From: a plasmid
Length of the DNA stretch: 64,000 bases
Reading direction: 5' to 3' (one strand)
Sequence record: NZ_CP086424.1
The notes beneath the pieces were generated by a model. It was not told the origin of the DNA, made no database searches, and saw nothing but the letters and a program-made list of their open reading frames with translations. A program made the position numbers and the translations under genes. Shown here one piece after another: positions 3,475 through 47,636 of the stretch. Position 1 is the first letter of the stretch. Every line of letters starts with the position of its first letter.

Positions 3475-3499
3475 TGCCCAAAATGGGCGCGTAAGCGTC
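3475..3499 (+). promoter_or_regulatory. AcaCD/SetCD-like activator box, copy 1 of 7
   Basis: TGCCCAAAATGGGCGCGTAAGCGTC matches the 7-copy consensus. It lies 105 bp upstream of the 3580 operon. Confidence 0.55.
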
Positions 3500-3579
3500 C
3501 GATAGAAAGTAATTGTTAGTGAGATATTGACTACACGGAATATGGCTATATCATAGAATCATAAAATGATGCTGTAAAA

Positions 3580-3966
3580 GTGATATGTATGCCAAAGCAA
3601 GCAAATCATCTCCGTTTGAAGAAACCTTGCGCCAACTGTCCATTCCGGAAGGAGGGCGCTATCGAGCTGGCCCCTGGGCGATTAGAAGGCATCATCAACG
3701 ACATCGTTGAAAACGACATGACGACGTTTCATTGCCACAAGACCGTGCACTCAAAGTCAGGTGGTGAATGGGATGAAGAGGGTAACTATGCACCTTCGGG
3801 ACAAGAGTCGATGTGTGCCGGTGCTGCGGCTTACTTGATGAAAATAGGCAGGCCGACAGTGGCTATGCGAATTGCCTTTGCGTTTGGTGATGCAAAGGTG
3901 TCCGACTGGGACGAAGCTCAAGAGCTGGTTGTCGAGCCTTTGGTACAAGGGGACCGAAATGAGTAA
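3580..3966 (+). CDS. Small Cys/His-rich hypothetical protein (CANCPF…HCH)
   Basis: ORF of 128 aa. GTG at 3580 or ATG at 3589. First gene after the activator box. Confidence 0.5.
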   Translation: MICMPKQANHLRLKKPCANCPFRKEGAIELAPGRLEGIINDIVENDMTTFHCHKTVHSKSGGEWDEEGNYAPSGQESMCAGAAAYLMKIGRPTVAMRIAFAFGDAKVSDWDEAQELVVEPLVQGDRNE

Positions 3967-4240
3967 GCGATATGCGGTAGTGCCGCATCCGAAACTGAAA
4001 CGAGAGTACAAAGGTCGGCTGGTCAGAACTACTCGGGTACTAAAAAACGGCTGGGGGTTGATCCCTCTAGGGGCTGTGGCAACGGTCACGCATCAGTCTC
4101 CCAAGGGATCAGAACTGACCTTTGAACCATGCGACTGCTGCGGCCTGAAAGCCATTATCAGTCATGTAAGCATGGACTCCATTGAATTTATCGAACCGAT
4201 TACTGAGGAAGAAGATGGACGAGAACAAGCTCAACATTGA
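3959..4240 (+). CDS. Small hypothetical protein with a CDCCG motif
   Basis: The ATG overlaps the stop of the upstream gene by 8 nt (translational coupling). 93 aa. Confidence 0.45.
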   Translation: MSKRYAVVPHPKLKREYKGRLVRTTRVLKNGWGLIPLGAVATVTHQSPKGSELTFEPCDCCGLKAIISHVSMDSIEFIEPITEEEDGREQAQH

Positions 4241-4889
4241 AACGGTCGATGGGCACAACGAGCTGGTAGTCAGCTTTTTGTCCAGAATGGTAAGCCTGAG
4301 TGACGAGGAAAAGCAGACAGTATTGTCCTGCCTTCCGGACACCGGCAAACAAACAATCACCCAGCTCTATGAGGCGCTGCGTTCTCAAGGGCACCAGGAT
4401 CTTGCAGAGAAAGTCGAACCATACCTCCAGCAGGGGGTGTTTGGGCCGATCTTCGATAACGCCAAGTCCAAGGTGTTCGTTCGGGACGAAGCGCCTTTTT
4501 TCCTCATGGATGAAAATCCTTTGAACTGGGATGACGCTAAAGCATTCAATCGCCTACGTATGAGTACGACCTGTGTTCTTGGCCGTGGCGGCTGGACTAT
4601 CGGTGAGCGCTTTGATGACCGCTTTGATACCGAGGTGGGCGGAACACAGCTTATCGTCACTCAGTCACTCAACGAAAAAGGTGAGATTGAAGGAGGACTT
4701 CCTACCTCGATGTCGCTGAATGACTTTGCTGAGTTCCCTAAACAGCCAAGGCCTCCTCAAATAGTCGATTACCAGGAAGACAAGCGATACACGCTTGAGG
4801 AAGCGGAAGCTATCCCTGAGCTCGCACCAGTGGTTCAGCGTCTGAAAGAGCGCATCGAAGAGTATGAGGAGAGAAGAGCCCATGATTGA
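4215..4889 (+). CDS. Hypothetical protein with an acidic C-terminus
   Basis: ATG at 4215 preceded by GAGGAAG. 224 aa. Confidence 0.55.
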   Translation: MDENKLNIETVDGHNELVVSFLSRMVSLSDEEKQTVLSCLPDTGKQTITQLYEALRSQGHQDLAEKVEPYLQQGVFGPIFDNAKSKVFVRDEAPFFLMDENPLNWDDAKAFNRLRMSTTCVLGRGGWTIGERFDDRFDTEVGGTQLIVTQSLNEKGEIEGGLPTSMSLNDFAEFPKQPRPPQIVDYQEDKRYTLEEAEAIPELAPVVQRLKERIEEYEERRAHD

Positions 4890-5388
4890 CCTGACATGCC
4901 GCCTTTGTGCTGGTTCCGGTGTTTATGACTTTTCCCCTTCCAAAGAAACCTGCGGTATGTGCCAAGGGCATGGGAAATTTGTTGACGCCAAAGCAATGCT
5001 GGTGGCTGCCATCGAGCTGGCAAAGAAGCAACGCGAGCCTGTCATTGAAGTGGTAATGGGGTTGGTGCTCCAGGGTGTGGATGTTAGAGGGAAGGAGCCT
5101 GGAGAGCGGTTCAAGGCTGCTCAGGCCTTTAACGCCCCAGGGCACAACCTATTACGATACGGGTGGGATGCTTGGGAGCTCTATGCCCTCCATGAGGGTG
5201 TAAGTCCAGAACTTGCATCGCTTGGCCGAAGTGTGATGCGCGAGTGGCATAGCCATTCATGGGGCCGGTTCAGTGGAGAGGTAGGCTTTAACGCCGCCGA
5301 GATCATGATCAAACAGGCCAAAGACAACCCAGAAAAAGCAGAAGAGCGCTGGGCGTTCCTGCTTAGTGAAGAATGGATGGTGGAGTAA
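4882..5388 (+). CDS. Small protein with an N-terminal DnaJ-type zinc-finger (two CxxCxGxG repeats)
   Basis: CRLCAGSG and CGMCQGHG near the N-terminus. The ATG overlaps the upstream stop. Confidence 0.55.
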   Translation: MIDLTCRLCAGSGVYDFSPSKETCGMCQGHGKFVDAKAMLVAAIELAKKQREPVIEVVMGLVLQGVDVRGKEPGERFKAAQAFNAPGHNLLRYGWDAWELYALHEGVSPELASLGRSVMREWHSHSWGRFSGEVGFNAAEIMIKQAKDNPEKAEERWAFLLSEEWMVE

Positions 5389-5705
5389 TTGTCGTGACAG
5401 AACAAACCAATAAGAAATTGATGCTGGATGAGTCTCCAGATATGCCCCTGCAATTCAAGTGGAGAAAGTTTGGTGGTGCGATTTTTACTGCCACGCAAAC
5501 AATGGAGCACGTCAAGGAAGGACGTAAGCTCGGGCCGACTCCAGCAGGGATGCTACCTCAAGAAGTGTGGCTGAACCGCCTGATCGCTATGGAAGAAACC
5601 CTGCCACGAGGGAAGTTTTTTGACAGATTCCGCCGCCGCGACAAAAACGAGCAGTATGACTTGGCCGCCGATCATCTCCGTCTTGTCGGAAAGAAAAAGC
5701 GATAG
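5373..5705 (+). CDS. Hypothetical protein with a basic C-terminus
   Basis: ORF of 110 aa overlapping the upstream gene end. An alternative GTG start lies at 5394. Confidence 0.4.
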   Translation: MDGGVIVVTEQTNKKLMLDESPDMPLQFKWRKFGGAIFTATQTMEHVKEGRKLGPTPAGMLPQEVWLNRLIAMEETLPRGKFFDRFRRRDKNEQYDLAADHLRLVGKKKR

Positions 5706-5713
5706 GGGGATAG

Positions 5714-6214
5714 ATGAAAGCCCAGGCATACCCACCATCAGTCATTCGTAAAGGCGCTGTGTTGTACGCAGCCCTTTATTACATCTCTGATGATGATAAA
5801 GCAAAGGTCGAGGTTACAGAGTGGATAGTTCGCTCTATTCAGAAACGACGCAACTCAACCAGCGATCAACGCTATGTCAATCTTGCCCAAAAGTTAGATG
5901 GGATTACGTGGGGGAAAAGGTCACGGAAGAATGGGGACTTTGGTTGGTTGCCATCTATACCGAGCTGGTGCTTGAAGCAGTTCCGGGAAGGTGGCGAATT
6001 GCCTTTTGGCGTTTATACGACGCGACTGGCCGCTCTCAAGTTTGCGAAAGTCAGCTTGCAGGAAGAGGTCCAATATTGCGAGGCCGAGCTGAAAAAGGCT
6101 CAGACAGAAGAGGATACTCAGGAACTCCAAGAGGAGCTGGCGGAGAACCAGAGACTTCTGAAAGCTGCTGGAGCAATGGTGAAGCGCGAGCAAAACAAGA
6201 AGAAAAGAGGTTGA
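5714..6214 (+). CDS. Hypothetical protein with a coiled-coil C-terminus
   Basis: ORF of 166 aa. Tightly packed in the operon. Confidence 0.5.
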   Translation: MKAQAYPPSVIRKGAVLYAALYYISDDDKAKVEVTEWIVRSIQKRRNSTSDQRYVNLAQKLDGITWGKRSRKNGDFGWLPSIPSWCLKQFREGGELPFGVYTTRLAALKFAKVSLQEEVQYCEAELKKAQTEEDTQELQEELAENQRLLKAAGAMVKREQNKKKRG

Positions 6215-6217
6215 CCA

Positions 6218-7645
6218 ATGTTACCGATCGTCTCCCCCTCCGTAGTAACCAAACAACTTGCGTTCAATCGAGTAGGCGATAAACGCAAGGTTAGGGTTTC
6301 GTCCAACTTTTTGGATGTTATGGGGTTCAAGCCAGGTATGGGCATCGCCGTTGAGCCAGGGGAGGGGATGGGCGGTTTTTCGGTGATCCCAGCGACCGAT
6401 GAACTACAGACACACCAGGTTTATCAGCGCCGGTATCAACCAAAGAGTCGCTCCAACAACCCGCTGGAAACCGTTATTGAGTTTTCTGGACAAGGGCTCA
6501 TAGATAAGTGCTTCCCTCGCTATACAGAGCGTTTCCACGTCGAAATGCGAAAAGGTCGAGTAGTCTTCACTCCCGTCGCAAACAGAGCCTTTGCCATTGC
6601 TGATCGGTTCAGAAAAACCAGCCCTTTCCGTGCCTTTGTGGCATTGACTGGCGGGGTAGACATTCATGTTATGGAATCGCTTGGCTGGAAGGCTGAGATT
6701 GTTTTGGAACATCGTCCAGTTGAAGCCAGAGACAGAGCATCCGGGCGGAACCTGAGTGAAGTACATGCGCTCAATACGCTGGTGAACAGCTCCCCGCGTA
6801 TCCTGCTGAATGAAGACATTCATCACCTGGAGCTGGATCGCCTTGGAGCCTTGCTGGCGGAGTGCCCACCAATTGGTTTGGCCCATTACTCGTTGGGGTG
6901 TGATGACCACTCAAACGCCAAAAGTCCAAGGGACAAAGAGCGTTCTCTTGAAGATCTCTCCACCATGCTCGACATGGTTTACCCGGCACTAAAACAGATC
7001 GAGGTCGTGAACCCTGCCGTCGTGCTGGTGGAAAACGTCCCGAACTTCAAAGCATCCGGAGCCGGGGCGATGATGGGAACGACACTGCGGCGGATGGGGT
7101 ACTTCCTCACTGAGATGGTCTTGAACGGTCTGGATTTCGGCGCGTACCAGGGGCGAGAACGCTATTACATGGTGGCGTCGGTCTTCCCTGGGTTCGTTCC
7201 ACCGAAACCTGAGCAGAGAGCTGGTGGACGATTGTGGCCGGTGATCGAGAAGCACCTCGGGGATTGTGCAGACGTCACAGCGTTGAAGTCAATTCAGGCC
7301 AGAGAGTCAACTTCTCGCAGGATGCCTGCGTTCTTGACGAGAGAAAGCACCAGTTGCCCGACCATCCTCAAGTCTCAGGATCGTGGGGTAAAGGATGCAG
7401 TGTACATCCAAGACGGTGGCCGCATTTACAAGCCATCGGTCGATCTGGTTCAGGAGTTGATGTCGATACCTGATAGCTTTGATATTTCGTGGATGGCAAA
7501 AGAACAAGCGACAGAAACACTTGGGCAGAGTGTGGATTACAGATTGCATTCAGCGGTCATGGCCGCAGTTCGGGATCACCTGAATGTGAATTGCGGTCGC
7601 CATACCGTGGTGCAGCACGGTATCAGAAGTAAGGAAGGTAAATAA
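6218..7645 (+). CDS. C5-cytosine methyltransferase-like paralog with degenerate motifs I and IV
   Basis: ENV motif (NPAVVLVENVPNF) and QxRxR (QGRERYY) are present. Motif IV reads LGCDD (Gly-Cys) instead of Pro-Cys. Motif I reads ALTGGVD. The N-terminal domain of about 100 aa resembles that of the dcm gene at 62725. Confidence 0.6.
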   Translation: MLPIVSPSVVTKQLAFNRVGDKRKVRVSSNFLDVMGFKPGMGIAVEPGEGMGGFSVIPATDELQTHQVYQRRYQPKSRSNNPLETVIEFSGQGLIDKCFPRYTERFHVEMRKGRVVFTPVANRAFAIADRFRKTSPFRAFVALTGGVDIHVMESLGWKAEIVLEHRPVEARDRASGRNLSEVHALNTLVNSSPRILLNEDIHHLELDRLGALLAECPPIGLAHYSLGCDDHSNAKSPRDKERSLEDLSTMLDMVYPALKQIEVVNPAVVLVENVPNFKASGAGAMMGTTLRRMGYFLTEMVLNGLDFGAYQGRERYYMVASVFPGFVPPKPEQRAGGRLWPVIEKHLGDCADVTALKSIQARESTSRRMPAFLTRESTSCPTILKSQDRGVKDAVYIQDGGRIYKPSVDLVQELMSIPDSFDISWMAKEQATETLGQSVDYRLHSAVMAAVRDHLNVNCGRHTVVQHGIRSKEGK

Positions 7646-8301
7646 TGGCAGTCATTTACTACGGCGAGGGAACCCATGACGCCGGTTTCGTCGGGTTCCG
7701 TGTCGCACGAACAGTTGGGGTGGCGGATGATTACCGGCAGGAATACTTCTCCTTGAGAGAGTATTCCTACGCAACAGCTCACCGGCTGGCCTACAGCTTG
7801 GACCGAAAGTGGGAAGCTGAGGCAGAAGAGGTGAAGCGTCAGAATAAGACTTGTAAGCGGCGACGCAACTCCGGGCCAAATATCATTGCTGAGGGGCTGA
7901 GGGCTTATATCAGTATCGAGAACCGGAGCCGGATGGGGGTGAAGAGAACCTACTTCGCACCTTGTTTTCTCGTCACAAAGCCAGGCTACGGCAATGGGGA
8001 TATTGTTTTCAGGATTTCCACTCATGGCTACGCAGAAGCCTACGAAAAGGCGGTGGAAAAATATTGTGAGATCCATGATTTGACGGATGAGCAGTATGTT
8101 GAGTTGCTTGACCGTATGCCGAGTACAGAGGTGTTCACTGGATACCTGCTGAATGCTCTTTTAATACGCGGTCATCGCGCCACAAAAGCTGAAATACTGA
8201 GTAAGCTGGGGGCTGCGAAGAATGAAGATGACATCACCAATAGCAAAGGGAAAAGCGGCCACAACAGAGTGCGTTGCCCAGAGTATCGGTGGGCGCAATA
8301 A
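7645..8301 (+). CDS. Hypothetical protein
   Basis: ORF of 218 aa. The ATG overlaps the upstream stop. Confidence 0.5.
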   Translation: MAVIYYGEGTHDAGFVGFRVARTVGVADDYRQEYFSLREYSYATAHRLAYSLDRKWEAEAEEVKRQNKTCKRRRNSGPNIIAEGLRAYISIENRSRMGVKRTYFAPCFLVTKPGYGNGDIVFRISTHGYAEAYEKAVEKYCEIHDLTDEQYVELLDRMPSTEVFTGYLLNALLIRGHRATKAEILSKLGAAKNEDDITNSKGKSGHNRVRCPEYRWAQ

Positions 8302-8356
8302 CAGCGCCAGATGTTCAAACCATGTTTTATAGCAACACCTCTTTGGGGGCGGAATT

Positions 8357-8974
8357 ATGTTTTTTGATAACAAAGTAGAATCTCACTCGCTCGTAATGGG
8401 AGCCAGCGGGAAGGGCAAATCGGTCTTGTCCGAACAAGTGCGGAAAAACGCGAGGCTGCGCGGTGATCTGCTGGTGGATACTGAGATGTACCGTGAAGGT
8501 CGAGGGTTGAAACCATACGAGCATGAGTACGCTCGTCGCTTAGTTCTGGGGCTAAGTGGACCGTTGCCGCGTGAACTGCGTGGGAAGCCGGTGACGGTTA
8601 TCTCTGATGTGTCCAGACCAAAAAAGGTAAAGCGTCAGCCAAAGCAATTTGTTAAGACCGTAAATGGCGTCACCCTTGAACGCCAATTGGTGGCAGATGC
8701 AAGAGACCAGTTGGAAATGCAAACAGGCGTCTGGCTCAAACAACCTCAGCTCATCGAGCTGATGGAAGAGTCGGGCATAGACGAAACTCTAGCCGATTTT
8801 GGTGAGGCTGAAACACAGATCCGAGAAATGCTGGCGGATGCGTTGGCGATGAAACTGGTAGGGCGCTCATGGCCCAAGTGTGGAGCCCTCTATAACGCGG
8901 CAGAAAAGTCCGACGTTAACTTTTCCTCCGAGCTTGATGCTGCGGCAAAAGAAGCTGGATACATGGTTCGCTGA
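8357..8974 (+). CDS. Small P-loop NTPase/kinase-like protein
   Basis: Walker A GASGKGKS at residues 15–22 of a 205-aa protein. Confidence 0.5.
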   Translation: MFFDNKVESHSLVMGASGKGKSVLSEQVRKNARLRGDLLVDTEMYREGRGLKPYEHEYARRLVLGLSGPLPRELRGKPVTVISDVSRPKKVKRQPKQFVKTVNGVTLERQLVADARDQLEMQTGVWLKQPQLIELMEESGIDETLADFGEAETQIREMLADALAMKLVGRSWPKCGALYNAAEKSDVNFSSELDAAAKEAGYMVR

Positions 8975-9181
8975 ATGGGATTTGGTGTGGACAAGATAGA
9001 TCGGCAAAGTTGGCTCGTTAAATTCAGGCGAGCGAAGTGTCAGGACACTTTAGACACGATGCGGGATGCGGCCATTCGCAACTATGAAGGGAATATTCGT
9101 GTTATCGCGGATATTGTATTGGCCCATGAGGCGAGAGAGACAGAAATTGAAAAAGGGATGTTTTGTCTAATAGTTAGATAG
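8975..9181 (+). CDS. Small hypothetical protein
   Basis: 68-aa ORF directly abutting the upstream stop. Confidence 0.3.
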   Translation: MGFGVDKIDRQSWLVKFRRAKCQDTLDTMRDAAIRNYEGNIRVIADIVLAHEARETEIEKGMFCLIVR

Positions 9182-9206
9182 TCTGATGAGCTATCAGGTG
9201 GTGATT

Positions 9207-9485
9207 ATGAAAAAGAGAATACTTCATCTGCCCGTAAAAAAGATTTACTTCGATCAGATCAAATCTGGAGAAAAACCAGATGAATATCGCCTCGTCACAG
9301 ACTACTGGATAAAAAGACTAGAGGGGCGCGAGTATGATGAAGTCCATGTTAAGTGTGGCTACCCAAAGGCTGGAGATATGTCCAGGATAGAGATTCGTCC
9401 TTGGCGTGGCTTCTCAAGGAACGTCATAACGCACCCGCACTTTGGAGATTATCCGGTTGAAGTATTCGCCATCCATGTGAATTGA
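9207..9485 (+). CDS. ASCH-domain (PUA-like) protein
   Basis: LHLPVKKIYFDQIKSGEKPDEYRL pattern typical of ASCH domains. ATG at 9207 with an AGGTGG Shine-Dalgarno. Confidence 0.55.
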   Translation: MKKRILHLPVKKIYFDQIKSGEKPDEYRLVTDYWIKRLEGREYDEVHVKCGYPKAGDMSRIEIRPWRGFSRNVITHPHFGDYPVEVFAIHVN

Positions 9486-13103: not shown

Positions 13104-13177
13104 CGTGTCGTTCCTCATAAAAAATTGTCGATGAGCCCATTCTAAAAGGGGGGGGATGGAAAGCTGGTTTCTCAAAC

Positions 13178-13200
13178 TGCCCAAATTGGACAGATAGGCG
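13178..13200 (+). promoter_or_regulatory. AcaCD/SetCD-like activator box, copy 2 (PtraI)
   Basis: TGCCCAAATTGGACAGATAGGCG, 93 bp upstream of the traI ATG. Confidence 0.55.
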
Positions 13201-13270
13201 TGTGTGCGATCTAAAGGTGTTTTGAGAGCATGTAGCGACGAGAAATACGATAGGAATATGGTCAACCTAC

Positions 13271-20129: not shown

Positions 20130-20791
20130 TGCGTAAGAGAGATTTCTTTTTTGGAGAGGTGTATGAGGGGAGTGGAGGAGCCACTCTACGACTGAGTGAT
20201 ATGGAACCATTGGCAAGAAAAGTGTCGGCAGAGTTCTTCACTGCACAACTGAACCGTATACTGAAAGAGCATGACGGTCAGTTGACGCTCAGCGATGGAA
20301 CGTCGTACCCCAGCTTTTGGAGCTTCATCGACAAGGTTGATCCAGAGCAGGTTGGTTTCGTGGAGATCTACGCTCGGCAGGATGTTAACGATAATGTTGA
20401 AGCGACACTGGCGTGTGACATCGTTTTGGTAAATGGTGTGATCACCGTTAAACCTCACTGGTGTGCTTACAAAGACATCAGGGCTGACGAAGTGATTTCC
20501 ACCTTACTGGTGCCTTTGCATTTGAAGGCTCTCCAGGGTAAGGCTTACATTCGCTGGGATGATGGTGAAACCGAACCTCTGTTACAAAACGACGACTATC
20601 AGGCTGAACTTGAAAATGTGTTTAGTGTTTCCAAGTACCCATCAGCCATGAGCTGGGGCGATACAGCAGACCAGAAGGTTAAGCAGTACAAGATGGACCT
20701 TGAGTGCGCCACAGATGTTGGTCGTCGAGGTGTCTCATCAGAGCAAGCATGGGATGCTTATCGAGAACTCCGTTACAATAGAACAGTGTGA
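20129..20791 (+). CDS. Hypothetical protein
   Basis: ORF of 220 aa. The ATG overlaps the upstream stop. Confidence 0.5.
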   Translation: MRKRDFFFGEVYEGSGGATLRLSDMEPLARKVSAEFFTAQLNRILKEHDGQLTLSDGTSYPSFWSFIDKVDPEQVGFVEIYARQDVNDNVEATLACDIVLVNGVITVKPHWCAYKDIRADEVISTLLVPLHLKALQGKAYIRWDDGETEPLLQNDDYQAELENVFSVSKYPSAMSWGDTADQKVKQYKMDLECATDVGRRGVSSEQAWDAYRELRYNRTV

Positions 20792-20833: not shown

Positions 20834-20881
20834 TTTTTCGCCTCCCGCTCTTATCATCTCCTCGAATAAACCTCCATAAAG

Positions 20882-20906
20882 TGCCCAAAATGGGCCGTAA
20901 CAGCAC
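20882..20906 (+). promoter_or_regulatory. AcaCD/SetCD-like activator box, copy 3 (PtraL operon)
   Basis: TGCCCAAAATGGGCCGTAACAGCAC. Confidence 0.55.
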
Positions 20907-21540: not shown

Positions 21541-21636
21541 TGTCGCTGGAAGTGCCCGAAAAGGGCGCGAAGCCGTGGCAGAAAATCAGTGACCCTGAAT
21601 GAGAATACAGGCCACTAGGAAAAGAAGAGGGTTGCT

Positions 21637-25790: not shown

Positions 25791-25819
25791 AAAAAGTCCA
25801 GTCATAACAAATTCCAACT

Positions 25820-25824: not shown

Positions 25825-28742
<2,918 letters not shown>

Positions 28743-29369: not shown

Positions 29370-29683
29370 TGAGTGCTCAGCTTCAGACCAATAATGCCAG
29401 CAACGATCAGCCCAAGGCTCAGCAAACGTGCCGGGCTGGCAGACTCACCCAGCAGCAAAATCCCTGTAATGGCCGCCCCAACAGCGCCAATACCGGTCCA
29501 GACCGCATAAGCGGTTCCTACAGGCAACGTGCGCATTGCCCAAGAGAGCATGGCGATACTGACGATCATCGCCGCAATAGTGATAATGCTTGGCGTAAGA
29601 CGCGTAAAACCGTGGGTGTATTTCAGGCCAATCGCCCAGACAACTTCGAGCAAACCTGCAATTAATAAAACGATCCAGGACAT
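29366..29683 (-). CDS. sugE: SMR-family quaternary-ammonium efflux protein SugE
   Basis: 105 aa with four TM helices. The true start is the internal ATG, not the longer six-frame ORF. Confidence 0.85.
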
Positions 29684-30303
29684 ATCAGGCTCCAGAACAA
29701 TGGGGCCGTCCCCGGTGAAAGAAGCGTTTGCAGGTCGTCCTGCAAAGCTAATGTGTGAAATGGCATTTTTGCCCGGAAGAAAATGAATTTCAACCTTTTT
29801 ATTCACCGCCTGCTAAAAGCAAGAATTAAGCATAATTAGCGGCGTAGTTCCCGCATTTGGCACTCATCGGAGTTCTCTATGATGAAGGGCTTTCTGAAAC
29901 CAGAAAGTCGATTGCCCCTCTTCTGAATGCGAAACGTTTATGCTTAAAATTTTAGTGATTGACCGGTGCCACTTTACCCGCACAGGGATAGAGGCCTTGC
30001 TTAATCATTCTGGCAGGTTCAGCTCCTCATTTCTGGTATCAGGAATCAATAATCTCCTGTTAGCAAAAGAGCATATTTTGCAATGGAAACCGCATCTGGT
30101 GATCGCGGATTTATACAGTTTTATTAGCGAGACGCACTCCAGTCCGCCAATTAAACCTTTTTTTATGAGTTGTGGCGTCATCCCACTAATTTTACTGCAA
30201 TCAGCAGACAGACAGCATGCACCCATCGTGCCCTCTCAATCCGTAGCCCATTCGGTCTTGACCAAGCACACCACGCTGAACACACTCTCCCACACAATTC
30301 AGG

Positions 30304-30308
30304 ATTTC
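30304..30308. repeat. 5-bp target-site duplication ATTTC (right)
   Basis: Matches 25820–25824. Confidence 0.6.
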
Positions 30309-30314
30309 CTTATT

Positions 30315-30340
30315 TGCTCAAAAAGGGCACTTCCACAGCC
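30315..30340 (+). promoter_or_regulatory. AcaCD/SetCD-like activator box, copy 4 (promoter of the 1828-aa gene)
   Basis: TGCTCAAAAAGGGCACTTCCACAGCC, 96 bp upstream of the ATG at 30411. It lies immediately outside the ISEcp1 unit. Confidence 0.5.
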
Positions 30341-30410
30341 CATGTTTATGCACTCCCTCCCGTAACCTCCAGCATTGGGTTCTTGTAACTCAAAACGAAT
30401 GGAGAATGCG

Positions 30411-35942: not shown

Positions 35943-35955
35943 ATCGCGCTGGAAT

Positions 35956-35980
35956 TGTCCAAATTGGGCTATTACAGAGG
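35956..35980 (+). promoter_or_regulatory. AcaCD/SetCD-like activator box, copy 5 (PdsbC–traC operon)
   Basis: TGTCCAAATTGGGCTATTACAGAGG, 90 bp upstream of dsbC. Confidence 0.55.
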
Positions 35981-41952: not shown

Positions 41953-42956
41953 TGCAAAAAATTCTACGGATCATGGCCGTTAGCGCGGTCTTTTGGGTTG
42001 GTTCGGTATCGGCTGACCCTGGGTGCCAGAATGCGGAAGTGATCGGCGGAAAACTGATTACTGACATCTGCTGGAGCTGTATTTTCCCTATCAAAGTAGC
42101 AGGGGTTCCTATAAGTGGTGGAGGCGGATCATTCCCGAGTGAAGCCGTAAGCAACCCTCTGTGTATGTGCGAGGATAATCTAGGGGTCCCTCGGCCTGGA
42201 GTCACCACTTCTATGTGGGAGCCAGCACGGCTCGTTGAATTTCAGAGAGTGCCTGGCTGCTCATCAGTCTTGAATGGTGTCAGGTTCCCGTTTGATAGGA
42301 CTAACCAAGGGCATCATGGCATGGGAGACATGGATGGTGGTGATGGTTCTTTTATGCACTATCACTACTATGCGTTTCCTCTGTTGGTGATGCTCGATTT
42401 ATTTATTAAGCAGACCTGTAATGCTGATGGGTATATGGATCTCGACATCATGTACATGTCGGAGCTCGACCCGACCTGGAACAATGATGAGCTCGCTTTT
42501 TTTACCAATCCAGAGGCGGCGGCAGTAGCAAACCCAATTGCGGCGGCTGCGTGTACTGCTGATGCTGTCTCATCAACCGCTGGAAAACCTTTAAAACAGC
42601 TTTTCTGGTGTGCTGGTTCATGGGGCACCCTGTATCCATTTAGTGGCAACCAGAATGGTGGAAAAGGTGTTATCCGCGATAGCAGTCTTCTTAGCACAAG
42701 GGTTCTGGCTGCTTTGCATCGCCGGGGGTTAGCGTGGAAGACAATGGGTTCTGAGGCTATGTGTAGAGGCGTTATTAGCCCAACACTACCCAAAACGCAG
42801 TACAAATTCACGCTATTGCATCCGGTTCCAGAGACAAACTCATCTCACGTAATTGGCGAATCCACTCTTACGTGGGGTCTGGCGCGAACTATACCGGCAA
42901 TTGGGCAAGACCCTATTTACACCATCTGGCGATGGAATGATTGCTGTAACAATTGA
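41949..42956 (+). CDS. traU: TraU
   Basis: Signal peptide MMQKILRIMAVSAVFWVGSVSA. Cys-rich periplasmic protein of about 335 aa. Confidence 0.75.
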   Translation: MMQKILRIMAVSAVFWVGSVSADPGCQNAEVIGGKLITDICWSCIFPIKVAGVPISGGGGSFPSEAVSNPLCMCEDNLGVPRPGVTTSMWEPARLVEFQRVPGCSSVLNGVRFPFDRTNQGHHGMGDMDGGDGSFMHYHYYAFPLLVMLDLFIKQTCNADGYMDLDIMYMSELDPTWNNDELAFFTNPEAAAVANPIAAAACTADAVSSTAGKPLKQLFWCAGSWGTLYPFSGNQNGGKGVIRDSSLLSTRVLAALHRRGLAWKTMGSEAMCRGVISPTLPKTQYKFTLLHPVPETNSSHVIGESTLTWGLARTIPAIGQDPIYTIWRWNDCCNN

Positions 42957-42993
42957 GCAGACCCTAACGAATTTGCACGGGCATTTTAGATTA

Positions 42994-43019
42994 TGCCCCA
43001 AAAGGGCCACTACACGTAC
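42994..43019 (+). promoter_or_regulatory. AcaCD/SetCD-like activator box, copy 6 (PtraN)
   Basis: TGCCCCAAAAGGGCCACTACACGTAC. Confidence 0.5.
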
Positions 43020-43059: not shown

Positions 43060-45867
43060 ATGGAGAACACAATGCGAAGTCATAATTACTTTATGAAAGC
43101 TGTGGCCTCGCTGTTGACAGTAACCATGTCTGCGCTGCCGATACATTCCTACGCTAACGGTAGCCAAGACCAGGACATCACAGCGGTGGGTAAAGAGGCC
43201 CAGGCTTTCGGACAAAACCTCTCAAACTCATTCAAGTCGAGCTCGGGGACTGTGCAAGATGGCACAATCTCTATGCCGACGTTGAAAGACGGTCAATTCC
43301 AAATGAACGGGGGGAGTCAGATTAATGTCAATGATCTATTCCCCGGAACGAGCGGGACCAACAATAAACCTGATAGTTATTACTTCCCTGATGCCAATAA
43401 ACCTGATGTGGGCGGTCTGCAAGGCATTTACGACTCTGGCGATGACATGGACAGCGTGGGGAATAATGCAAAAGGGTCGCTGTGGAGTGATGCCAATAGT
43501 GCTAATCCATCAATCTCTGGTGCGGCATACAAGGTTCTTCTCGATGCCTCTAATCGATCACGCCCTGATTTCAGTAATGACCCGGTACTAAATCTAAGCA
43601 AAAAGACCTATGAGGATATGGACCTCATCGCAGGTGGCTTTGGGGATTGTTCTGCCGAAACAACCATCAATCAGAATACTATCAACGCCCACATTCCAGA
43701 GTATGAACGGTGTCAGCGTGTTGTAGATCAAAGCGCGGACTGTGAGGTTGTCCATGACTACGACGCCTCTGTGGTGAAGCACTATGATGGTCCATATAAC
43801 CTCAAATCTTGTGGAGAAGGCTGTACTGAGTTGTGGATTGGTCGAGTGGGGGACAACTACTGGAGTGGTAACTGCAAGATTTATGAGGAGTACACGCGGG
43901 TCCAAGTCAGCAATCCAGATGCCATAGTGTCTGCAACGCTTGAATACGCCAAGTGGGATGACTACATGCAAGTGTGGGTCGGTAAGTCCGGCCAAGAGAC
44001 TAAAGTGTGGTCTGGCCCAGATGGCAACTTCCCTCCAGAAACAGCCGGTAGATGTGAGCTCTCCACGAGTTGGGAGCGAAACCCTAATGTTGATGTCACT
44101 CCCTATTTTAAGAACGTGAAAGATGGTGATGTTGTTACGTTTAAGATCCGCGTTTCAGTAAGTGGCGAAGGTGAGGGTTTTGGCCGCATAAAACTCCGCT
44201 ATGACCCATCGAAAGCCATTACCAAGGATGAGTGGGCTCCACAGAGCTGCATGGATTCAGCCAAAGGGGTGGTAGATGGTTTTGCGGAAGGCGAGATCAC
44301 ATGTATAGATGACCCGACTGATGCTACTGGCTGCACAGTCATCAATGGGATCAAAGTTTGCGAATCTCAACTCAAGCCGTCACCTTTGCCTGGTATTCCA
44401 AAACTATGCAAAAAGGTTCGAGTTAAAGCTGACTATGACTTCTATAAGGGGCAAATGGACTGCTGGACAGACCCTCAAGGTGAAACGCACTGTCCGGTAA
44501 ACACGGGCGGGAATCTCGATAGCTGTCAGAAATATGAAGAAAACCCTCAGTGCGGCTTCATCAGTTCCAAATGTGTTGATGGTGCTCAGGGAAGTTCTGG
44601 TACGTGCTACGTCCACGAGGATACTTATGACTGTGGTACAGATGTTTCTGTTCCGACCTTGGAAAAGGAAACTGAGTACCAGTGCGGTGGGCCTATACGC
44701 TGCATGGGAGATGACTGCCTTGATTTGACCAAAACACAAAGCACTGATTTTGCTCGCGCTACTGCGTTGCTCAATGCAGCCCAATTCATGACGCAGGATA
44801 TGAGCTGCACAGGCCAAGATGGGGATGACAATCCTACCGGGGATGAAAACGTTATTTGCTCTGCTTTTGCAGGGGAAGCTGGCGAATGCAAGATAGCTGT
44901 TGGGGGAGTTTCTGATTGCTGTGAAAAGCCAACCAATATATCTCTTGCCGATTATCTGAACCTAATAATGGCCGTTCCAAAGCTCGATGGCGCAGTGATG
45001 GGGCTGACTGATGGTAATGCGCTTAAAGGTGCTTATCAGGTACTTAGGGAACCTGCCCTTCAAGGGTGGACAGAAGTCACAAAACCGTTCACAAGTTATA
45101 TAGAGAACGTTTCAGGTGCTGTTGATTCGTTCTTCCAGCCTGTAGAGCAGTTTGTTGATCAACTCATTGACCAGCTCAAAGAGCAAGTCAAAGAAGTGAT
45201 GATGGATGTCATGAAATCAGCAGGCCAAGATGCAGCAACAGAGCAGGCGGCTGCCGCAGCATCTGAACAAGCTGCCGAAGCAATGATGGAGACTGCGACA
45301 ACATGGCTTAGCACTGCCATGACGATATATACCGTCTATGTCGTTGCGATGGTGATGATCCAGATGATTTATAAGTGCGAGGAAGAAGAGTTCACTATGA
45401 ACGCAAAAAGAGCGCTCAAGAATTGCACCTATGTAGGCTCTTATTGTAAATCTAAGGTGTTGGGCGCTTGTATTGAAAAAAGAGAAGCGTATTGCTGCTT
45501 CAATTCTCCGCTCTCTCGTATTATACAAGAACAGGTTCGCCCTCAATTGGGGCAGAACTTTGGAGACCCCAAAAATCCTCAGTGTGAAGGGATTCCACTA
45601 GATAAAATTGCCGAAATTGATTGGAGCAAAATTAATTTGGATGAGTGGCTTGGGATATTACAGCAGAACGGTAAATTCCCTGATCCGGCCTCAATAAATC
45701 TCGACTCGCTGACTGGAGCAGGGAATGACTTCAATATTGACGGGACGCGGAAGAATGCTCAGGAAAGGGCGTTGGAGCGGTTGGAAGGGATTGATATTGA
45801 CGCGAAGCGAAAAGAGGCGACAAACAGCATAGACCCTCAAACAGGCGCGCCAACTGGTGGTGGATAA
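43060..45867 (+). CDS. traN: Outer-membrane mating-pair stabilisation protein TraN
   Basis: 935 aa. Signal peptide. Very many Cys residues. C-terminal conserved CxxC cluster. Confidence 0.8.
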   Translation: MENTMRSHNYFMKAVASLLTVTMSALPIHSYANGSQDQDITAVGKEAQAFGQNLSNSFKSSSGTVQDGTISMPTLKDGQFQMNGGSQINVNDLFPGTSGTNNKPDSYYFPDANKPDVGGLQGIYDSGDDMDSVGNNAKGSLWSDANSANPSISGAAYKVLLDASNRSRPDFSNDPVLNLSKKTYEDMDLIAGGFGDCSAETTINQNTINAHIPEYERCQRVVDQSADCEVVHDYDASVVKHYDGPYNLKSCGEGCTELWIGRVGDNYWSGNCKIYEEYTRVQVSNPDAIVSATLEYAKWDDYMQVWVGKSGQETKVWSGPDGNFPPETAGRCELSTSWERNPNVDVTPYFKNVKDGDVVTFKIRVSVSGEGEGFGRIKLRYDPSKAITKDEWAPQSCMDSAKGVVDGFAEGEITCIDDPTDATGCTVINGIKVCESQLKPSPLPGIPKLCKKVRVKADYDFYKGQMDCWTDPQGETHCPVNTGGNLDSCQKYEENPQCGFISSKCVDGAQGSSGTCYVHEDTYDCGTDVSVPTLEKETEYQCGGPIRCMGDDCLDLTKTQSTDFARATALLNAAQFMTQDMSCTGQDGDDNPTGDENVICSAFAGEAGECKIAVGGVSDCCEKPTNISLADYLNLIMAVPKLDGAVMGLTDGNALKGAYQVLREPALQGWTEVTKPFTSYIENVSGAVDSFFQPVEQFVDQLIDQLKEQVKEVMMDVMKSAGQDAATEQAAAAASEQAAEAMMETATTWLSTAMTIYTVYVVAMVMIQMIYKCEEEEFTMNAKRALKNCTYVGSYCKSKVLGACIEKREAYCCFNSPLSRIIQEQVRPQLGQNFGDPKNPQCEGIPLDKIAEIDWSKINLDEWLGILQQNGKFPDPASINLDSLTGAGNDFNIDGTRKNAQERALERLEGIDIDAKRKEATNSIDPQTGAPTGGG

Positions 45868-45895: not shown

Positions 45896-45905
45896 TGTAG
45901 ATTGA

Positions 45906-46766
45906 TTACGCTTCTGGGTAAACAAATAACTCTGCTTTTCCCTGATCAAGAAGGTAAGGGAAAGCAACTTTTTCGCCATTATCCAGCTCAACCGATTTTG
46001 GAGCAAGGTAGAGGTAGGCCCAAGCTGGTAGCTGTTTGCTAATAGCTGCGTAGATCGCTTGCTGAGGAGCATGGCTTGCTGCCCCATTACCGACATTCAC
46101 AAAGTTGTATGCGGTCTCATGGCCTGATGTGAAGGCATACGCTGTACCTTGAACGCCAGAGACAAAATTAGGAGCTGACCCTAGGCGAGGCTCCACGATT
46201 TTCACCTTAACGGAACACATGTCAGCTACCTTACTTTGTCCGTTCACCCACGTCGGGCAACCCCATTCATTCTTGTAGAACTGATAGGTTAGGCGACCGT
46301 CTTTGTCATACAGAAGCGTGAAATTGGCACCCAAATCAGTCAGCGCTGACTCAATGGAAACTTTCACATGTGAAAGAAATTTGGCCTGAGCGTCTGCCGG
46401 TGAAACTGCTTCGTTAGCAGGCATCCAAGCGATCAAGCTATTGCGAGCGCCATGCTGTTTGGGGCCGATAGCCCAGTTCGCAAGGTTGACCAAGCCACCT
46501 TGCCAGTCGGTCATTCCGAGCTGAGGGGACATGTAGCCAGACAGCACGTAGGCTGCCCCAAACGTTTTGGTGTCGGTCAGACGCTCCAGCTTGTCACGCG
46601 GAACAGAAGCGTCTTGGATGCCTGTTACCAGGCCACCGGCCTCCGCGATGTTGTAAGCGCGACTGTGATTGGTTTTGTACGCTGTGGGTTCGTAACTGCT
46701 GGTGGATGCACAGCCAGATAGAGCTGCTACAGCCAGAGCCACGGTGGTGATTAAAGCCTTTTTCAT
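45906..46766 (-). CDS. Lipoprotein, hypothetical
   Basis: MKKALITTVALAVAALSGCAS lipobox. 286 aa. Confidence 0.6.
   Translation of the reverse strand: MKKALITTVALAVAALSGCASTSSYEPTAYKTNHSRAYNIAEAGGLVTGIQDASVPRDKLERLTDTKTFGAAYVLSGYMSPQLGMTDWQGGLVNLANWAIGPKQHGARNSLIAWMPANEAVSPADAQAKFLSHVKVSIESALTDLGANFTLLYDKDGRLTYQFYKNEWGCPTWVNGQSKVADMCSVKVKIVEPRLGSAPNFVSGVQGTAYAFTSGHETAYNFVNVGNGAASHAPQQAIYAAISKQLPAWAYLYLAPKSVELDNGEKVAFPYLLDQGKAELFVYPEA
46361..46376. repeat. 16-bp palindrome CTTTCACATGTGAAAG, copy 3 (inside the lipoprotein CDS)
   Basis: Identical to the other copies. Confidence 0.9.
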
Positions 46767-46888
46767 GTTGTTCTCCGTTCTTACCTGAGTTGAATCTGAT
46801 TTACTTCGATAATATCACAGCATCAAAAAATGCAACCATAAAAGACAAAAAAAAGCCCCTCGGGCGAGGGGCAAAGGTTTGGGCTGGG

Positions 46889-47530
46889 TTATGCTGCTTT
46901 TGTTTTCTCGGCTTCGTCTGCGATTTCCTTGTCGCCGGTTGCAGATTCCGGAGCGGCTTCGGCCACTTCACCTTCTTTGCCTTTGCTGTGGGCGGAAATG
47001 CGAGCCCGTTTCTCGATGCCGATGATTCGACCGGCCAGCTTGATGAGGCGTTGCTGCCATTGGTAAGTGGCGTCGGTGCGCTGCTTGCTGGTCAGTACGG
47101 TGTTCAGCCAGAGAGTGTCAACGATCCCCATCAGGGTATCCAGTTTGCGGATCAGGTGTGCAAACTGAGCAACCTGAGGAGAGTTGATCTCGATGGTGTA
47201 TTCATTCGGGTTGGTGTAGCCGGGCATCATGTCGATGCCGTTGTCTTCCATCAGCTTGTTGAGCTGGGCGGTAGCTTTGTCCAGGTCTTCGGAGACCTTG
47301 GAAATGTGTTCCAGGATGACGGTTTCAACCTGGTCGATTTCGTCCTGCTCACCGATGATGCGAAGGATCACGTCGATGGAGAACAGGGAGTTGGAAACTC
47401 GCTCAAAGCTGCGTTCCATGACGCGCTGAGCTTGGAGGCTGTTTACTTTCAGAACTTGCTTGAAAACAGGGCGAGAGTAGTGGTTGCTGCGGTCGTTGTT
47501 TGTGTCCAGTGCTACTTGTGCTTCTGCCAT
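46889..47530 (-). CDS. Hypothetical protein divergent from the island operon
   Basis: Start at 47530 (MAEAQVALDT…) with an AGGAG Shine-Dalgarno. 213 aa. Ala/Glu-rich C-terminal tail. Confidence 0.55.
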   Translation of the reverse strand: MAEAQVALDTNNDRSNHYSRPVFKQVLKVNSLQAQRVMERSFERVSNSLFSIDVILRIIGEQDEIDQVETVILEHISKVSEDLDKATAQLNKLMEDNGIDMMPGYTNPNEYTIEINSPQVAQFAHLIRKLDTLMGIVDTLWLNTVLTSKQRTDATYQWQQRLIKLAGRIIGIEKRARISAHSKGKEGEVAEAAPESATGDKEIADEAEKTKAA

Positions 47531-47612
47531 TAGAGATACTCCTAAATTTGAGGTACAGATAAACGCACTGGAAAGGATAAATGCGGTCAATCTGTAACCT
47601 GACCTCTCGAAG

Positions 47613-47636
47613 TGCCCAAAATGGACAGTTACAGCG
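47613..47636 (+). promoter_or_regulatory. AcaCD/SetCD-like activator box, copy 7
   Basis: TGCCCAAAATGGACAGTTACAGCG, oriented toward the + strand island. Confidence 0.55.

Follow-up and report, generated by a model that had tools for sequence, protein, structure and literature searches.

The transfer and accessory operons in a 64-kb stretch of plasmid DNA (64,000 nucleotides, referred to here as the window) are preceded by a recurrent palindrome-containing box, which raises the question of whether these operons form a single regulon, and under which activator. The window is identical in sequence to bases 32001-96000 of NZ_CP086432.1, a conjugative plasmid (IncC, MOBH, MPF_F), and represents its IncC backbone. 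Outside the window, at 152.3-153.4 kb of the plasmid record, acaD and acaC are flanked by acr1 and the H-NS-like acr2, and their products carry the FlhD (31.6 bits) and FlhC (31.8 bits) domains of Pfam, against a cut-off of 27 bits in each case. The boxes are almost certainly operator sites of AcaCD, the FlhDC-like heteromeric master activator of the IncA and IncC conjugative plasmids, and no evidence contradicts this assignment.

All of the seven boxes that an earlier note had located on the + strand are present, with the sequences TGCCCAAAATGGGC (at 3475 and 20882), TGCCCAAATTGGAC (13178), TGCTCAAAAAGGGC (30315), TGTCCAAATTGGGC (35956), TGCCCCAAAAGGGC (42994), and TGCCCAAAATGGAC (47613). Conservation is strong only in the left, palindromic half, while the right half follows a loose pattern, (A/C)NTTNCAGNG, whose register is fixed. 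The palindromic half of the consensus proposed previously is thus retained, whereas its N1-2 gap is unneeded and its GTAACAGCG is matched by few copies. Each 28-bp site consists of a 14-bp palindromic core, TGYCCNAAWWGGRC, which may also be written CCNNNNNNGG, with a loose TTNCAG tail after it.

The degenerate core TGNCCNAAWWGGRC, with at most one mismatch, occurs 12 times in the window, against 2.5 +/- 1.6 in shuffled sequences, and none of 100 shuffles reaches 12. The sole input to a 28-nt weight matrix was a set of eight AcaCD sites published for SGI1 and MGIVmi1 (PMC4207636 Table 1, where AATGTGCCCAAAAAGGGCCAATACAGCG and GGACTGCCCAAATTGGACAGTTTGGGAG are examples), and the matrix is therefore independent of the window. 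This matrix recovers 13 matches of at least 15 bits, in comparison with a mean of 0.08 in random Markov sequences. Six of the seven boxes are among these matches, with + strand scores of 17.6-33.1 bits. The box of the vcrx036-044 accessory operon (3471-3498, core TG at 3475, ATG at 3589) scores 8.1 bits on the + strand and is recovered by its - strand reading, which faces vcrx035 (3466-3493, 16.4 bits); despite the low score in this small matrix, a MAST p-value of 5e-10 was reported for the + reading by Carraro et al. (PMC4207636).

The comparison with the published ChIP-exo motif, suggested in the earlier note, returned the same box. The binding of AcaCD was mapped by ChIP-exo, and the start sites by 5'-RACE, on plasmid pVCR94 by Carraro et al. 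2014 (PLoS Genet, PMC4207636), whose Table S3 gives peaks for vcrx036, traI, vcrx068, vcrx076, dsbC, traN, and vcrx087, a start site for most of these genes, and their AcaCD-dependent expression. These seven peaks map onto the seven boxes at constant offsets, and the inclusion of all seven operons in one regulon is upheld. Overall, 10 of the 17 ChIP-exo peaks fall within the window, seven of which had been noticed, and the 13 matrix matches all sit at these ten intergenic places; the boxes of traL (21549-21576), traV (24767-24794), and vcrx098 (57258-57285) had been missed, as had the divergent promoters of vcrx035, vcrx059, and acaB. Later work that combined ChIP-exo and Cappable-seq with lacZ fusions confirmed the full set of 18 plasmid promoters (Durand et al. 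2021, NAR, PMC8373056). The finding of the seven boxes is right, but already published, and hence not new. The binding, start sites, and AcaCD dependence come from experiments on the near-identical pVCR94 backbone (PMC4207636). The evidence from the present plasmid comprises the identity of the sites, their statistics and geometry, their conservation in a relative that is ~70% identical, and an intact site beside ISEcp1, and its sites probably behave as they do in pVCR94.

The assignment to AcaCD had been left beside an alternative, SetCD, the activator of the SXT/R391 integrative conjugative elements, a distant homologue of AcaCD and a class II activator of the orthologous operons of traI, traL, traV, dsbC, and s063/s089, as well as that of traF (PMC4344509). 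According to Poulin-Laprade et al. 2015 (PMC4344509), however, the SetCD motif "drastically differs" from the sites of AcaCD and FlhD2C2, while the boxes are found on an IncC replicon that encodes acaC and acaD, and match the published AcaCD sites, so that a role as SetCD sites is highly improbable.

Under the assignment to AcaCD, the geometry of the promoters is also informative. The distances from the core TG to the annotated ATG are, in order, 114, 93, 90, 96, 90, 78, and 212 bp, and the last of these, for the 47613 box, is far outside the 78-105 bp given by the earlier note. Its "about -90" is correct as a distance to the ATG, but not in relation to the start sites, where the boxes lie at around -63 to -36. 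The start sites are found 63-65 nt past the start of the motif, and an A2/T6 -10-like hexamer (TAAGAT, TAACCT, TACACT, TAGCAT, TAGAAT, or TATATT, for example) is located at +52 to +57 in most promoters. No such hexamer was found in this position at vcrx035, the sole site without a mapped start site in that comparison. AcaCD would occupy the usual -35 position, with the -10-like hexamer at a fixed distance downstream, and, given this arrangement, would recruit RNA polymerase as a class II activator.

The box had been read in a single orientation, which is accurate for the copies listed, although, the core being palindromic, the sites at 3475, 13178, 35956, and 47613 score on the - strand as well. 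For three sites, Table S3 gives - strand motifs with downstream genes (vcrx035, vcrx059, and vcrx086/acaB), with a - strand start site mapped for vcrx059 and vcrx086, and none for vcrx035 (PMC4207636). The 3475 site corresponds to the pVCR94 motifs at 20382-20410 (+) and 20377-20405 (-), and the start site at 20445-47 would fall at approximately 3534 in the window. At 13178, the traI/mobH-traD box (13174-13201, +; ATG at 13271; 23.0 bits) overlaps that of the divergent vcrx059 operon, which runs leftwards from 13103 (13169-13196, -; 25.3 bits); Table S3 gives pVCR94 start sites in both directions, and the core is kept in pAQU2 at an equal distance from mobH.

The box at 20882 (20878-20905, +; 22.0 bits; pVCR94 motif 42725-42753, start site 42789-91; orthologous box in pAQU2) had been interpreted as a distant traL promoter, but serves vcrx068, a small open reading frame at 20972. 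The traL-traA operon has its own box (21549-21576, +; core TGCCCGAAAAGGGC at 21553; 16.2 bits in the - reading), 84 bp before the ATG at 21637, equivalent to the pVCR94 motif 43396-43424 with a start site at 43460-62. An internal promoter box of traV (24767-24794, +; 26.6 bits) lies within the annotated traV coding sequence, which starts at 24752; this is the strongest ChIP-exo peak (pVCR94 motif 46614-46642, start site 46677-79), and is kept in pAQU2, as are the dsbC-traC...traU box (35952-35979; 23.0 bits on + and 21.4 bits on -; ATG at 36046; pVCR94 motif 53360-53388, start site 53424-26) and the traN box (42990-43017, +; 17.6 bits; ATG at 43072; pVCR94 motif 60398-60426, start site 60461-63). 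The vcrx098 operon box (57258-57285, +; 21.2 bits; ATG at 57509) is equivalent to the pVCR94 motif 75267-75295, and the expression of vcrx098 rises from 3 to 8357 on AcaCD induction, with its start site not mapped in 2014 (PMC4207636).

The vcrx076 box (30311-30338, +; 23.0 bits; pVCR94 motif 47674-47702, start site 47738-40) precedes the gene of an 1828-aa Ig-like protein with Big_3 and DUF4165 domains in Pfam (ATG at 30411), and adjoins an ISEcp1-blaCMY-blc-sugE transposition unit of 4479 bp (25825-30303, +), with its left inverted repeat, CCTAGATTCTACGT, at 25825. The unit is flanked by a 5-bp duplication, ATTTC, at 25820-25824 and 30304-30308, and its end is separated from the 28-nt box by 7 bp and from the core TG by 11 bp, so the gene did keep its activator site despite the insertion, as had been proposed. 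A synthetic empty site with one copy of ATTTC is matched at 100% in one piece, with 532 plasmids covering at least 80% in one place. Between indels, the offset from pVCR94 to the window holds constant (16911, ~21842-21847, 17363, 17408, 17410, and 18009), with a step of 4484 bp across ISEcp1, that is, the unit plus the duplication, and another of 45 bp across the 1828-aa gene. This second step presumably reflects the 15-codon difference between orf1832 and orf1847 of the two IncC types, with pVCR94 being what we take to be type 2, and the present plasmid, type 1.

Two sites lie directly 3' of the terminator-like hairpins of the preceding operon: read on the - strand, those at 21571 and 35974 lead into GC-rich hairpins with T runs after them. 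This would fit palindromes without a part in regulation that arose by chance or as structural sequences, for instance terminator hairpins or REP-like repeats. The 13 matches found where 0.08 are expected, and the fixed geometry relative to the mapped start sites, are nevertheless contrary to this reading. So is pAQU2, which is ~70% identical to the window (in one 701-bp stretch of the region): its flanking sequences have diverged, yet a similarly spaced box still precedes each of mobH, the vcrx068-like gene, traL, traV, the Ig-like gene, dsbC, traN, and acaB/vcrx087. Published ChIP-exo shows direct binding (PMC4207636), and, together with the reporter data, refutes this reading, to which practically no probability attaches.

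The two operons that had been considered unexpected targets of AcaCD are both published members of its regulon. For the operon at 3580-9485, the Dcm label is sustained, given that Pfam recognises the methylase and nothing else in this operon, whereas the kinase-like and ASCH labels are without Pfam support. The "small-gene island" at 47.8 kb forms the beginning of the host-defence-evasion operon, vcrx087-vcrx093 (PMC7498323), which has its box in common with acaB. This bidirectional site (47604-47636) is read on the + strand towards vcrx087 (47609-47636, 33.1 bits) and on the - strand towards acaB (47604-47631, 23.6 bits), with pVCR94 start sites at 65081-83 (+) and 64976-78 (-). The product of acaB (vcrx086; 46889-47530, -) matches residues 1-213 of PDB 6N8B, "transcription regulator AcaB" (E = 1e-135).

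In single-copy lacZ fusions, the promoters of vcrx035, vcrx036, and vcrx087 are constitutively active, and that of vcrx087 has near-canonical -35 and -10 elements (PMC8373056), so AcaCD binding may add little to expression there. The binding at 3475 and 47613 (+) could then be real but dispensable, with constitutive promoters dominating, in which case the 47613 palindrome would have acaB, on the other strand, as its functional target. The window has TATATT at the expected -10 position, and acaB is strongly AcaCD-dependent (17 vs 1093; PMC4207636 Table S3). On AcaCD induction, however, RNA-seq of pVCR94 shows increases from 0 to 320 for vcrx036 and from 5 to 3445 for vcrx087 (PMC4207636), and the vcrx087 box has the highest site score in the window, which leaves dispensable binding unlikely, albeit well short of negligible.

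If all ten sites are functional AcaCD operators, they would activate the relaxase/coupling-protein operon and those for the pilus and mating pore (traL-A, traV, dsbC-traU, and traN), together with the gene of the large Ig-like surface protein, a pair of accessory operons, and the host-defence-evasion operon (anti-restriction and ssb/bet/exo). The divergently read acaB would also be switched on, and AcaB would re-activate acaDC; AcaB has been reported to activate acaDC transcription, forming with AcaCD a positive feedback loop (PMC8373056).

A separate observation is a structured mRNA leader of ~130-155 nt, with five copies in the window and a widespread occurrence elsewhere, which is absent from Rfam. 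The first copy (47669-47824, +; 64 bits with model R1) extends from the AcaCD-dependent start site to the vcrx087 ATG, and accounts for the 212-bp distance between box and ATG; it is ~93% identical to pAQU2, between flanks of ~50-60%, and has a fold energy of -58.3 kcal/mol (z = -4.8). The other copies, also on the + strand, end at the ATGs of vcrx089, an AAA_5/CbbQ_C ATPase in Pfam (48713-48853, 75.8 bits), a DUF3150 gene in Pfam (53548-53688, 76.3 bits), vcrx098, 3' of its AcaCD box (57380-57508, 72.2 bits), and a 114-aa gene at 61923 (61794-61922, 74.1 bits).

These leaders probably correspond to the rptI repeats of Roy et al. 2020 (PMC7498323), matched here by the published description. 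Both are intergenic and in the same region, the longest rptI has 155 bp and the vcrx087 leader 156 nt, and a 32-bp stretch is reported to be identical in SGI1, while the conserved core of the leader, GTGCGATAGCTGGTCGCCAAAAACAAACAGCA, also has 32 nt. That paper presents the rptI repeats as DNA substrates of Bet/Exo annealing, and states that SXT/R391 lacks them (PMC7498323). Occlusion of the ribosome-binding site has been noted for single genes, as a sequestering structure ahead of vcrx089 (Roy et al. 2020, PMC7498323), and, in SXT, as an attenuator of translation ahead of bet (Garriss et al. 2013, as cited in PMC4542580). The leader differs from these descriptions in being a covarying multi-hairpin RNA family found across the Gamma- and Betaproteobacteria, and the observation may be new.

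Among the known systems, pVCR94 shares the motif, the ten intergenic positions, the downstream genes, the distance to the start sites, and the three divergent pairs (vcrx035/036, vcrx059/traI, and acaB/vcrx087), while in the present plasmid the vcrx076 box has the ISEcp1-blaCMY unit 7 bp upstream, the vcrx076 region differs in length by 45 bp, and the distance between vcrx087 and vcrx098 is ~600 bp shorter. The AcaCD boxes of SGI1 and MGIVmi1 sufficed for a matrix that recovers the sites of the window, and SgaCD, the FlhDC of SGI1, also binds the AcaCD boxes of the plasmid (PMC8373056), although the boxes of SGI1 and MGIVmi1 reside on genomic islands, mobilisable elements that hijack the plasmid, and SgaCD is encoded by SGI1 rather than by the plasmid. 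The SetCD of the SXT/R391 elements is likewise an FlhDC-like heteromer and a class II activator, which binds just upstream of or overlapping the -35 element of orthologous operons, with its strongest site also divergent, before the ssb/bet/exo operon (s063/s089), but its motif is drastically unlike, and its identity to AcaCD is 34% in the C subunit and 23% in the D subunit (PMC4344509). FlhD4C2, the activator at class II flagellar promoters in E. coli and Salmonella, comes from the same family of proteins, with FlhD and FlhC Pfam domains, and has a sigma-70-dependent activation from a site close upstream of the core promoter, while its operator sequence and regulon are different, as published (PMC4344509).

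The window is base-for-base identical to positions 32001-96000 of NZ_CP086432.1, a 156.5-kb IncC plasmid (MOBH, MPF_F) of Klebsiella pneumoniae, and more than 1000 plasmid records, overwhelmingly typed as conjugative, match its first 20 kb (612 at an identity of at least 99%). The gene order runs from parAB through an accessory operon that encodes a Dcm methylase, traI (mobH) and traD, and traL-E-K-B-V-A, to an ISEcp1-blaCMY-16-blc-sugE insertion, a gene for a 1828-aa Ig-like protein, dsbC-traC...traU, traN, and a long block on the + strand with ssb, bet, and exo among its genes. The ORFs with the FlhD domain (acaD, 152268-152876) and the FlhC domain (acaC, 152873-153424) lie outside the window in NZ_CP086432.1, with acr1 (HTH) upstream and the H-NS-like acr2 downstream, so that both subunits of AcaCD, the FlhDC-like master activator of these plasmids, are encoded on the same replicon as the boxes, as expected of AcaCD-dependent promoters.

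All seven boxes that the earlier note had placed at 3475, 13178, 20882, 30315, 35956, 42994, and 47613 are present at these positions. The consensus proposed for them holds for the well-conserved 14-bp core (TGYCCNAAWWGGRC), while the right half is just a loose TTNCAG in fixed register. The boxes are not due to chance, given that the degenerate core occurs 12 times in the window with at most one mismatch, against 2.5 +/- 1.6 times in shuffles, and that a 28-nt matrix, derived from eight AcaCD sites published for SGI1 and MGIVmi1 with no sequence from the window, finds 13 matches at or above 15 bits, where random sequence yields 0.08 on average. With this independent matrix, six of the seven boxes score 17.6-33.1 bits on the + strand, and the box at 3475, which reaches only 8.1 bits in this orientation, is recovered by its - strand reading (16.4 bits); the operators thus match the AcaCD motif derived from ChIP-exo. 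The - strand readings of the boxes fall at 3466, 13169, 35947, and 47604. The matrix also recovers two boxes that had been missed, before traV (24767-24794, +) and before vcrx098 (57258-57285, +; vcrx numbers are genes of the IncC plasmid pVCR94), and a third, before traL, through its - strand reading (16.2 bits), the + strand core TGCCCGAAAAGGGC of this box being read directly at 21553. In the remainder of the plasmid, more sites of at least 14 bits lie where the published list predicts them and are read, by their position, as those of vcrx114, vcrx128, traF, and vcrx152, while no site reaching 14 bits was found there for vcrx012 or vcrx140.

The AcaCD regulon of pVCR94 was determined by ChIP-exo, RNA-seq, and genome-wide 5'-RACE, with 17 peaks in Table S3 (Carraro et al. 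2014, PMC4207636), and ChIP-exo, Cappable-seq, and lacZ fusions later confirmed 18 of 18 plasmid promoters, the AcaCD sites of the plasmid also being bound by SgaCD of SGI1 (Durand et al. 2021, PMC8373056). Ten of the 17 peaks fall on sites of the window (vcrx035/036, vcrx059/traI, vcrx068, traL, traV, vcrx076, dsbC, traN, vcrx086/087, and vcrx098). Both in vivo binding and AcaCD-dependent transcription have therefore been published for the orthologous sites of pVCR94 (PMC4207636, PMC8373056). The earlier attribution to AcaCD or SetCD, the SXT/R391 counterpart, survives in its first half, the box being the same as that of the published AcaCD sites, but not in its second, as the authors of the SetCD study state that the motif of SetCD “drastically differs” from that of AcaCD (PMC4344509). 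The boxes are AcaCD operators, then, as had been observed and, with some corrections, interpreted, although this is already known, and they teach nothing new about a regulon that has been mapped since 2014. They do define the genes that an IncC multidrug-resistance plasmid turns on for transfer, and the genomic islands, such as SGI1 and MGIVmi1, that can hijack it, and their correct reading from the raw sequence is useful for annotation.

The coordinates of pVCR94 were transferred to the window through the offsets of the motifs, which are constant between indels: 16911 bp at vcrx036, about 21842-21847 bp from traI to traV, 17363 bp at vcrx076, 17408 bp at dsbC and traN, 17410 bp at vcrx087, and 18009 bp at vcrx098. 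The step of 4484 bp is accounted for exactly by the ISEcp1 unit together with its duplication of 5 bp, and the step of 45 bp, located across the 1828-aa gene, would match the 15-codon difference between orf1832 and orf1847 of the IncC types.

Mapped onto this near-identical backbone, the published start sites of pVCR94 fall 63-65 nt past the start of the 28-nt motif, which implies that the site spans about -63 to -36, with the center of the palindrome near -52. The position of about -90 given previously is correct as a distance to the ATG, but not relative to the start site. Most promoters of the window have an A2/T6 -10-like hexamer at +52 to +57 from the start of the motif (TAAGAT, TAACCT, TACACT, TAGCAT, TAGAAT, TATCCT, and TATATT, for example), and no recognizable -35 element was found in the box promoters of the window. 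The hexamer is absent at vcrx035, the only site with no mapped start site. With the operator in place of the -35 element and a fixed spacing to the -10 element, the sites of the window fit the class II geometry that Carraro et al. 2014 (PMC4207636) describe, using the start sites from the pVCR94 literature. In the diverged relative pAQU2, which is approximately 70% identical over one 701-bp stretch of the region, boxes are kept at similar spacing before mobH, the vcrx068-like gene, traL, traV, the Ig-like gene, dsbC, traN, and acaB/vcrx087, while the flanking DNA has diverged, a pattern of sequence conservation that supports a likely function for the boxes.

The assignment of boxes to genes requires some revision. 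The box at 20882, attributed previously to the traL block, serves vcrx068, and a separate box, 84 bp from the ATG of traL, precedes that gene. The accessory operon and the island of small genes at 47.8 kb, both considered unexpected, are published members of the regulon (PMC4207636). In the former (3589-9485), the Dcm methylase is upheld, but the “kinase-like” and “ASCH” genes have no Pfam support, and the latter is more precisely the start of the vcrx087-vcrx093 hde operon, which comprises vcrx089-090, with an anti-restriction role, and ssb/bet/exo, for the repair of breaks made by CRISPR-Cas (Roy et al. 2020, PMC7498323). In the RNA-seq of pVCR94, the induction of AcaCD raised vcrx036 from 0 to 320 and vcrx087 from 5 to 3445 (PMC4207636), while Pvcrx035, Pvcrx036, and Pvcrx087 were constitutively active in single-copy lacZ fusions (PMC8373056), and the contribution of AcaCD is thus least certain at these three promoters. 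On the vcrx035 side, the site with no mapped start site and with constitutive reporter fusions, two tandem copies of ACGCCCAAA are found at 3445-3465, immediately upstream of the 3475 box, each resembling (T)GCCCAAA, the left half-site in the AcaCD palindrome. A homopolymer of eight G (eight C on the - strand) is found within 13120-13170, between the vcrx059/traI palindrome and the -10 element of vcrx059, and the length of this tract within the divergent promoter could vary.

The palindrome at 47613 that precedes the hde operon also drives acaB (46889-47530, -) from the opposite strand; its 213-aa product matches PDB 6N8B, “transcription regulator AcaB” (E = 1e-135). AcaB activates acaDC, closing a positive feedback loop (PMC8373056), and the sharing of one palindrome between this feedback promoter and the host-defence-evasion operon is a practical addition to the annotation. 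The first hde gene, vcrx087 (47825-48145, +), encodes 106 aa with a hydrophobic N-terminus (MHIITFIVVLLASLGALYVGAKAFA), for which no match was found in Pfam or PDB; it was considered as AcaB itself, and was rejected for the lack of a PDB match and the identity of the divergent 213-aa gene. A second practical addition concerns traV, in which the annotated coding sequence starts at 24752, overlapping the end of traB, and an internal promoter has its AcaCD box (24767-24794) and its mapped start site (about 24830) downstream of this start. The location of this box inside the annotated coding sequence is probably the reason for which it was overlooked. The arrangement suggests that, on the transcript from the internal promoter, translation would have to begin further downstream than annotated; either this start is misplaced, or traV has two translation starts, depending on the transcript.

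The insertion beside vcrx076 provides a third addition of this type. The left inverted repeat of ISEcp1 begins at 25825, and a 5-bp duplication (ATTTC) is found at 25820-25824 and 30304-30308. A synthetic empty site, formed by joining 25425-25824 to 30309-30708, was matched in one piece at 100% identity, and 532 plasmids covered at least 80% of its length in one place. Together, the duplication and the empty-site match delimit the transposition unit as 25825-30303. The right end of this common ISEcp1-blaCMY insertion is separated by 7 bp from the 28-nt operator of vcrx076, and by 11 bp from its core TG, so the proposal that the 1828-aa gene kept its activator site proved correct, with the operator, the -10 element, and the leader all untouched. 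Everything upstream of about -70 in this promoter is now foreign DNA. The unit also contains a Guanidine-II (mini-ykkC) riboswitch (29702-29746, -; Rfam RF01068, 47.2 bits against a gathering score of 32) upstream of sugE, a class that is common upstream of sugE-type exporters, and which here travels with blaCMY.

Two of the boxes stand unusually far from their genes, at 212 bp (47613) and 247 bp (vcrx098) from the ATG, because the AcaCD-started transcripts concerned each carry a copy of a structured 5' leader. The window has five copies of this leader, all on the + strand and roughly 130-155 nt in length, at 47669-47824, 48713-48853, 53548-53688, 57380-57508, and 61794-61922 (cores at 47695, 48739, 53574, 57406, and 61820), and every one of these terminates at a start codon. 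Before vcrx087, the segment 47680-47775 aligns with pAQU2 at approximately 93% identity, against about 50-60% in the flanks, and the leader segment folds at -58.3 kcal/mol (z = -4.8).

The leader begins with a hairpin of highly varied sequence (H1), which 41 of the 43 unique copies possess (mean z, -2.3), followed by H2, a 4-bp stem with the invariant loop UAGCUGG, and then the invariant tail AAACAAACAGCA. The two variable pairs of H2 covary perfectly (CG/AU/UA and AU/GC/GU/CG), with all cells paired and a score reached by none of 500 shuffles; the covariation rests on these two pairs, as the search pattern fixes the remaining two. The CAGC of the tail and the GCUG of the loop could form an H-type pseudoknot, which is putative, both sides being invariant and thus beyond covariation. 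Further variable hairpins follow the tail, and a final hairpin is predicted to occlude the Shine-Dalgarno sequence just before the start codon, which lies a median of 105 nt downstream of the core. The predicted pairing probability at positions -14 to -5 is higher for the leaders (0.74) than for 53 further genes in the window (0.55; Mann-Whitney p = 5e-7, a value that overstates independence, as the copies are related).

With R1, a covariance model of the 5' module, seven strong copies were detected in the plasmid and about a dozen in pAQU2, without exception on the coding strand. Among the stretches of DNA compared with the window, those with the leader are L003 (1569-1636 and 7826-7893), L006 (49875-49942), L007 (nine strong copies and one weak), and L008-L055. 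When one genome per species was scanned with the strict 26-nt pattern TAGCTGGNCNCCNNAAACAANCAGCA, it was found in 48 stretches, several contigs having more than one copy, which come from a range of Gamma- and Betaproteobacteria, with a few further metagenome-assembled genomes; among the hosts are Vibrio, Shewanella, Photorhabdus, Edwardsiella, Providencia, Alcanivorax, Marinobacter, Pseudoalteromonas, Tepidimonas, and metagenome-assembled genomes of the Rhodocyclales. Among viral contigs, only one matched. The genes behind the leader include the AAA_5/CbbQ_C ATPase vcrx089, a DUF3150 protein, a PAPS-reductase-like protein, a PD-(D/E)XK nuclease, an RNase T-like exonuclease, and many small proteins with no assigned function. 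In Vibrio, Edwardsiella, Providencia, and other genomes, small proteins with N-termini as hydrophobic as that of vcrx087 are found behind the same leader. Rfam 15, applied to the whole window at the gathering threshold, returned only the Guanidine-II riboswitch and no leader family, and permissive scans of two leader copies gave a best E of 0.57, with all scores far below gathering. The leader is widespread in the mobile elements of Gamma- and Betaproteobacteria, and lies outside Rfam 15.

A number of identities were considered for this element. It is unlikely to be a DNA-level site or a single-strand promoter, given that its stems are short (4-10 bp) and separate, that all model matches with E < 0.01, and the weak ones as well, lie on the coding strand, that a start codon ends most copies, and that G-U pairs occur on the sense strand. 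An attenuator was rejected, as the consensus scan gave no convincing intrinsic terminator within the vcrx087 leader, so that no terminated small RNA is claimed, and an AcaB site was rejected, as the model gives no copy upstream of acr1. The leader would instead act in cis on translation, with the invariant hairpin-plus-tail module being recognized by some factor. It is possible, if somewhat short of probable, that it represents an undescribed class of cis-regulatory RNA, in which a ligand, protein, or small RNA at the invariant module gates the translation of the DNA-metabolism and anti-defence genes of conjugative elements. What may be new here is thus the transcript product of two AcaCD boxes, rather than the boxes themselves, and, if the leader proves to be a regulatory RNA, it would add a post-transcriptional layer to the AcaCD regulon and to many related mobile elements.

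Searches of the literature with the sequence string of the leader recovered only unrelated papers, and no description of a widespread covarying RNA family of this type was found. In Roy et al. 2020 (PMC7498323), intergenic “rptI” DNA repeats of this region are substrates of Bet/Exo repair, the longest measuring 155 bp, with a 32-bp part reported as identical in SGI1, and a structure that sequesters the ribosome-binding site is noted before vcrx089. A translational attenuator before bet in SXT is attributed to Garriss et al. 2013, as cited in the accessible part of PMC4542580. Two of the available rptI deletion sizes, 10310 and 9268 bp, correspond to the distances 47702-57413 and 48746-57413 plus 599 bp, the difference in length to pVCR94, while the other sizes misfit under the same labelling. 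The leader, the rptI repeats, and the published attenuator and sequestering structures are probably, in part, the same objects.
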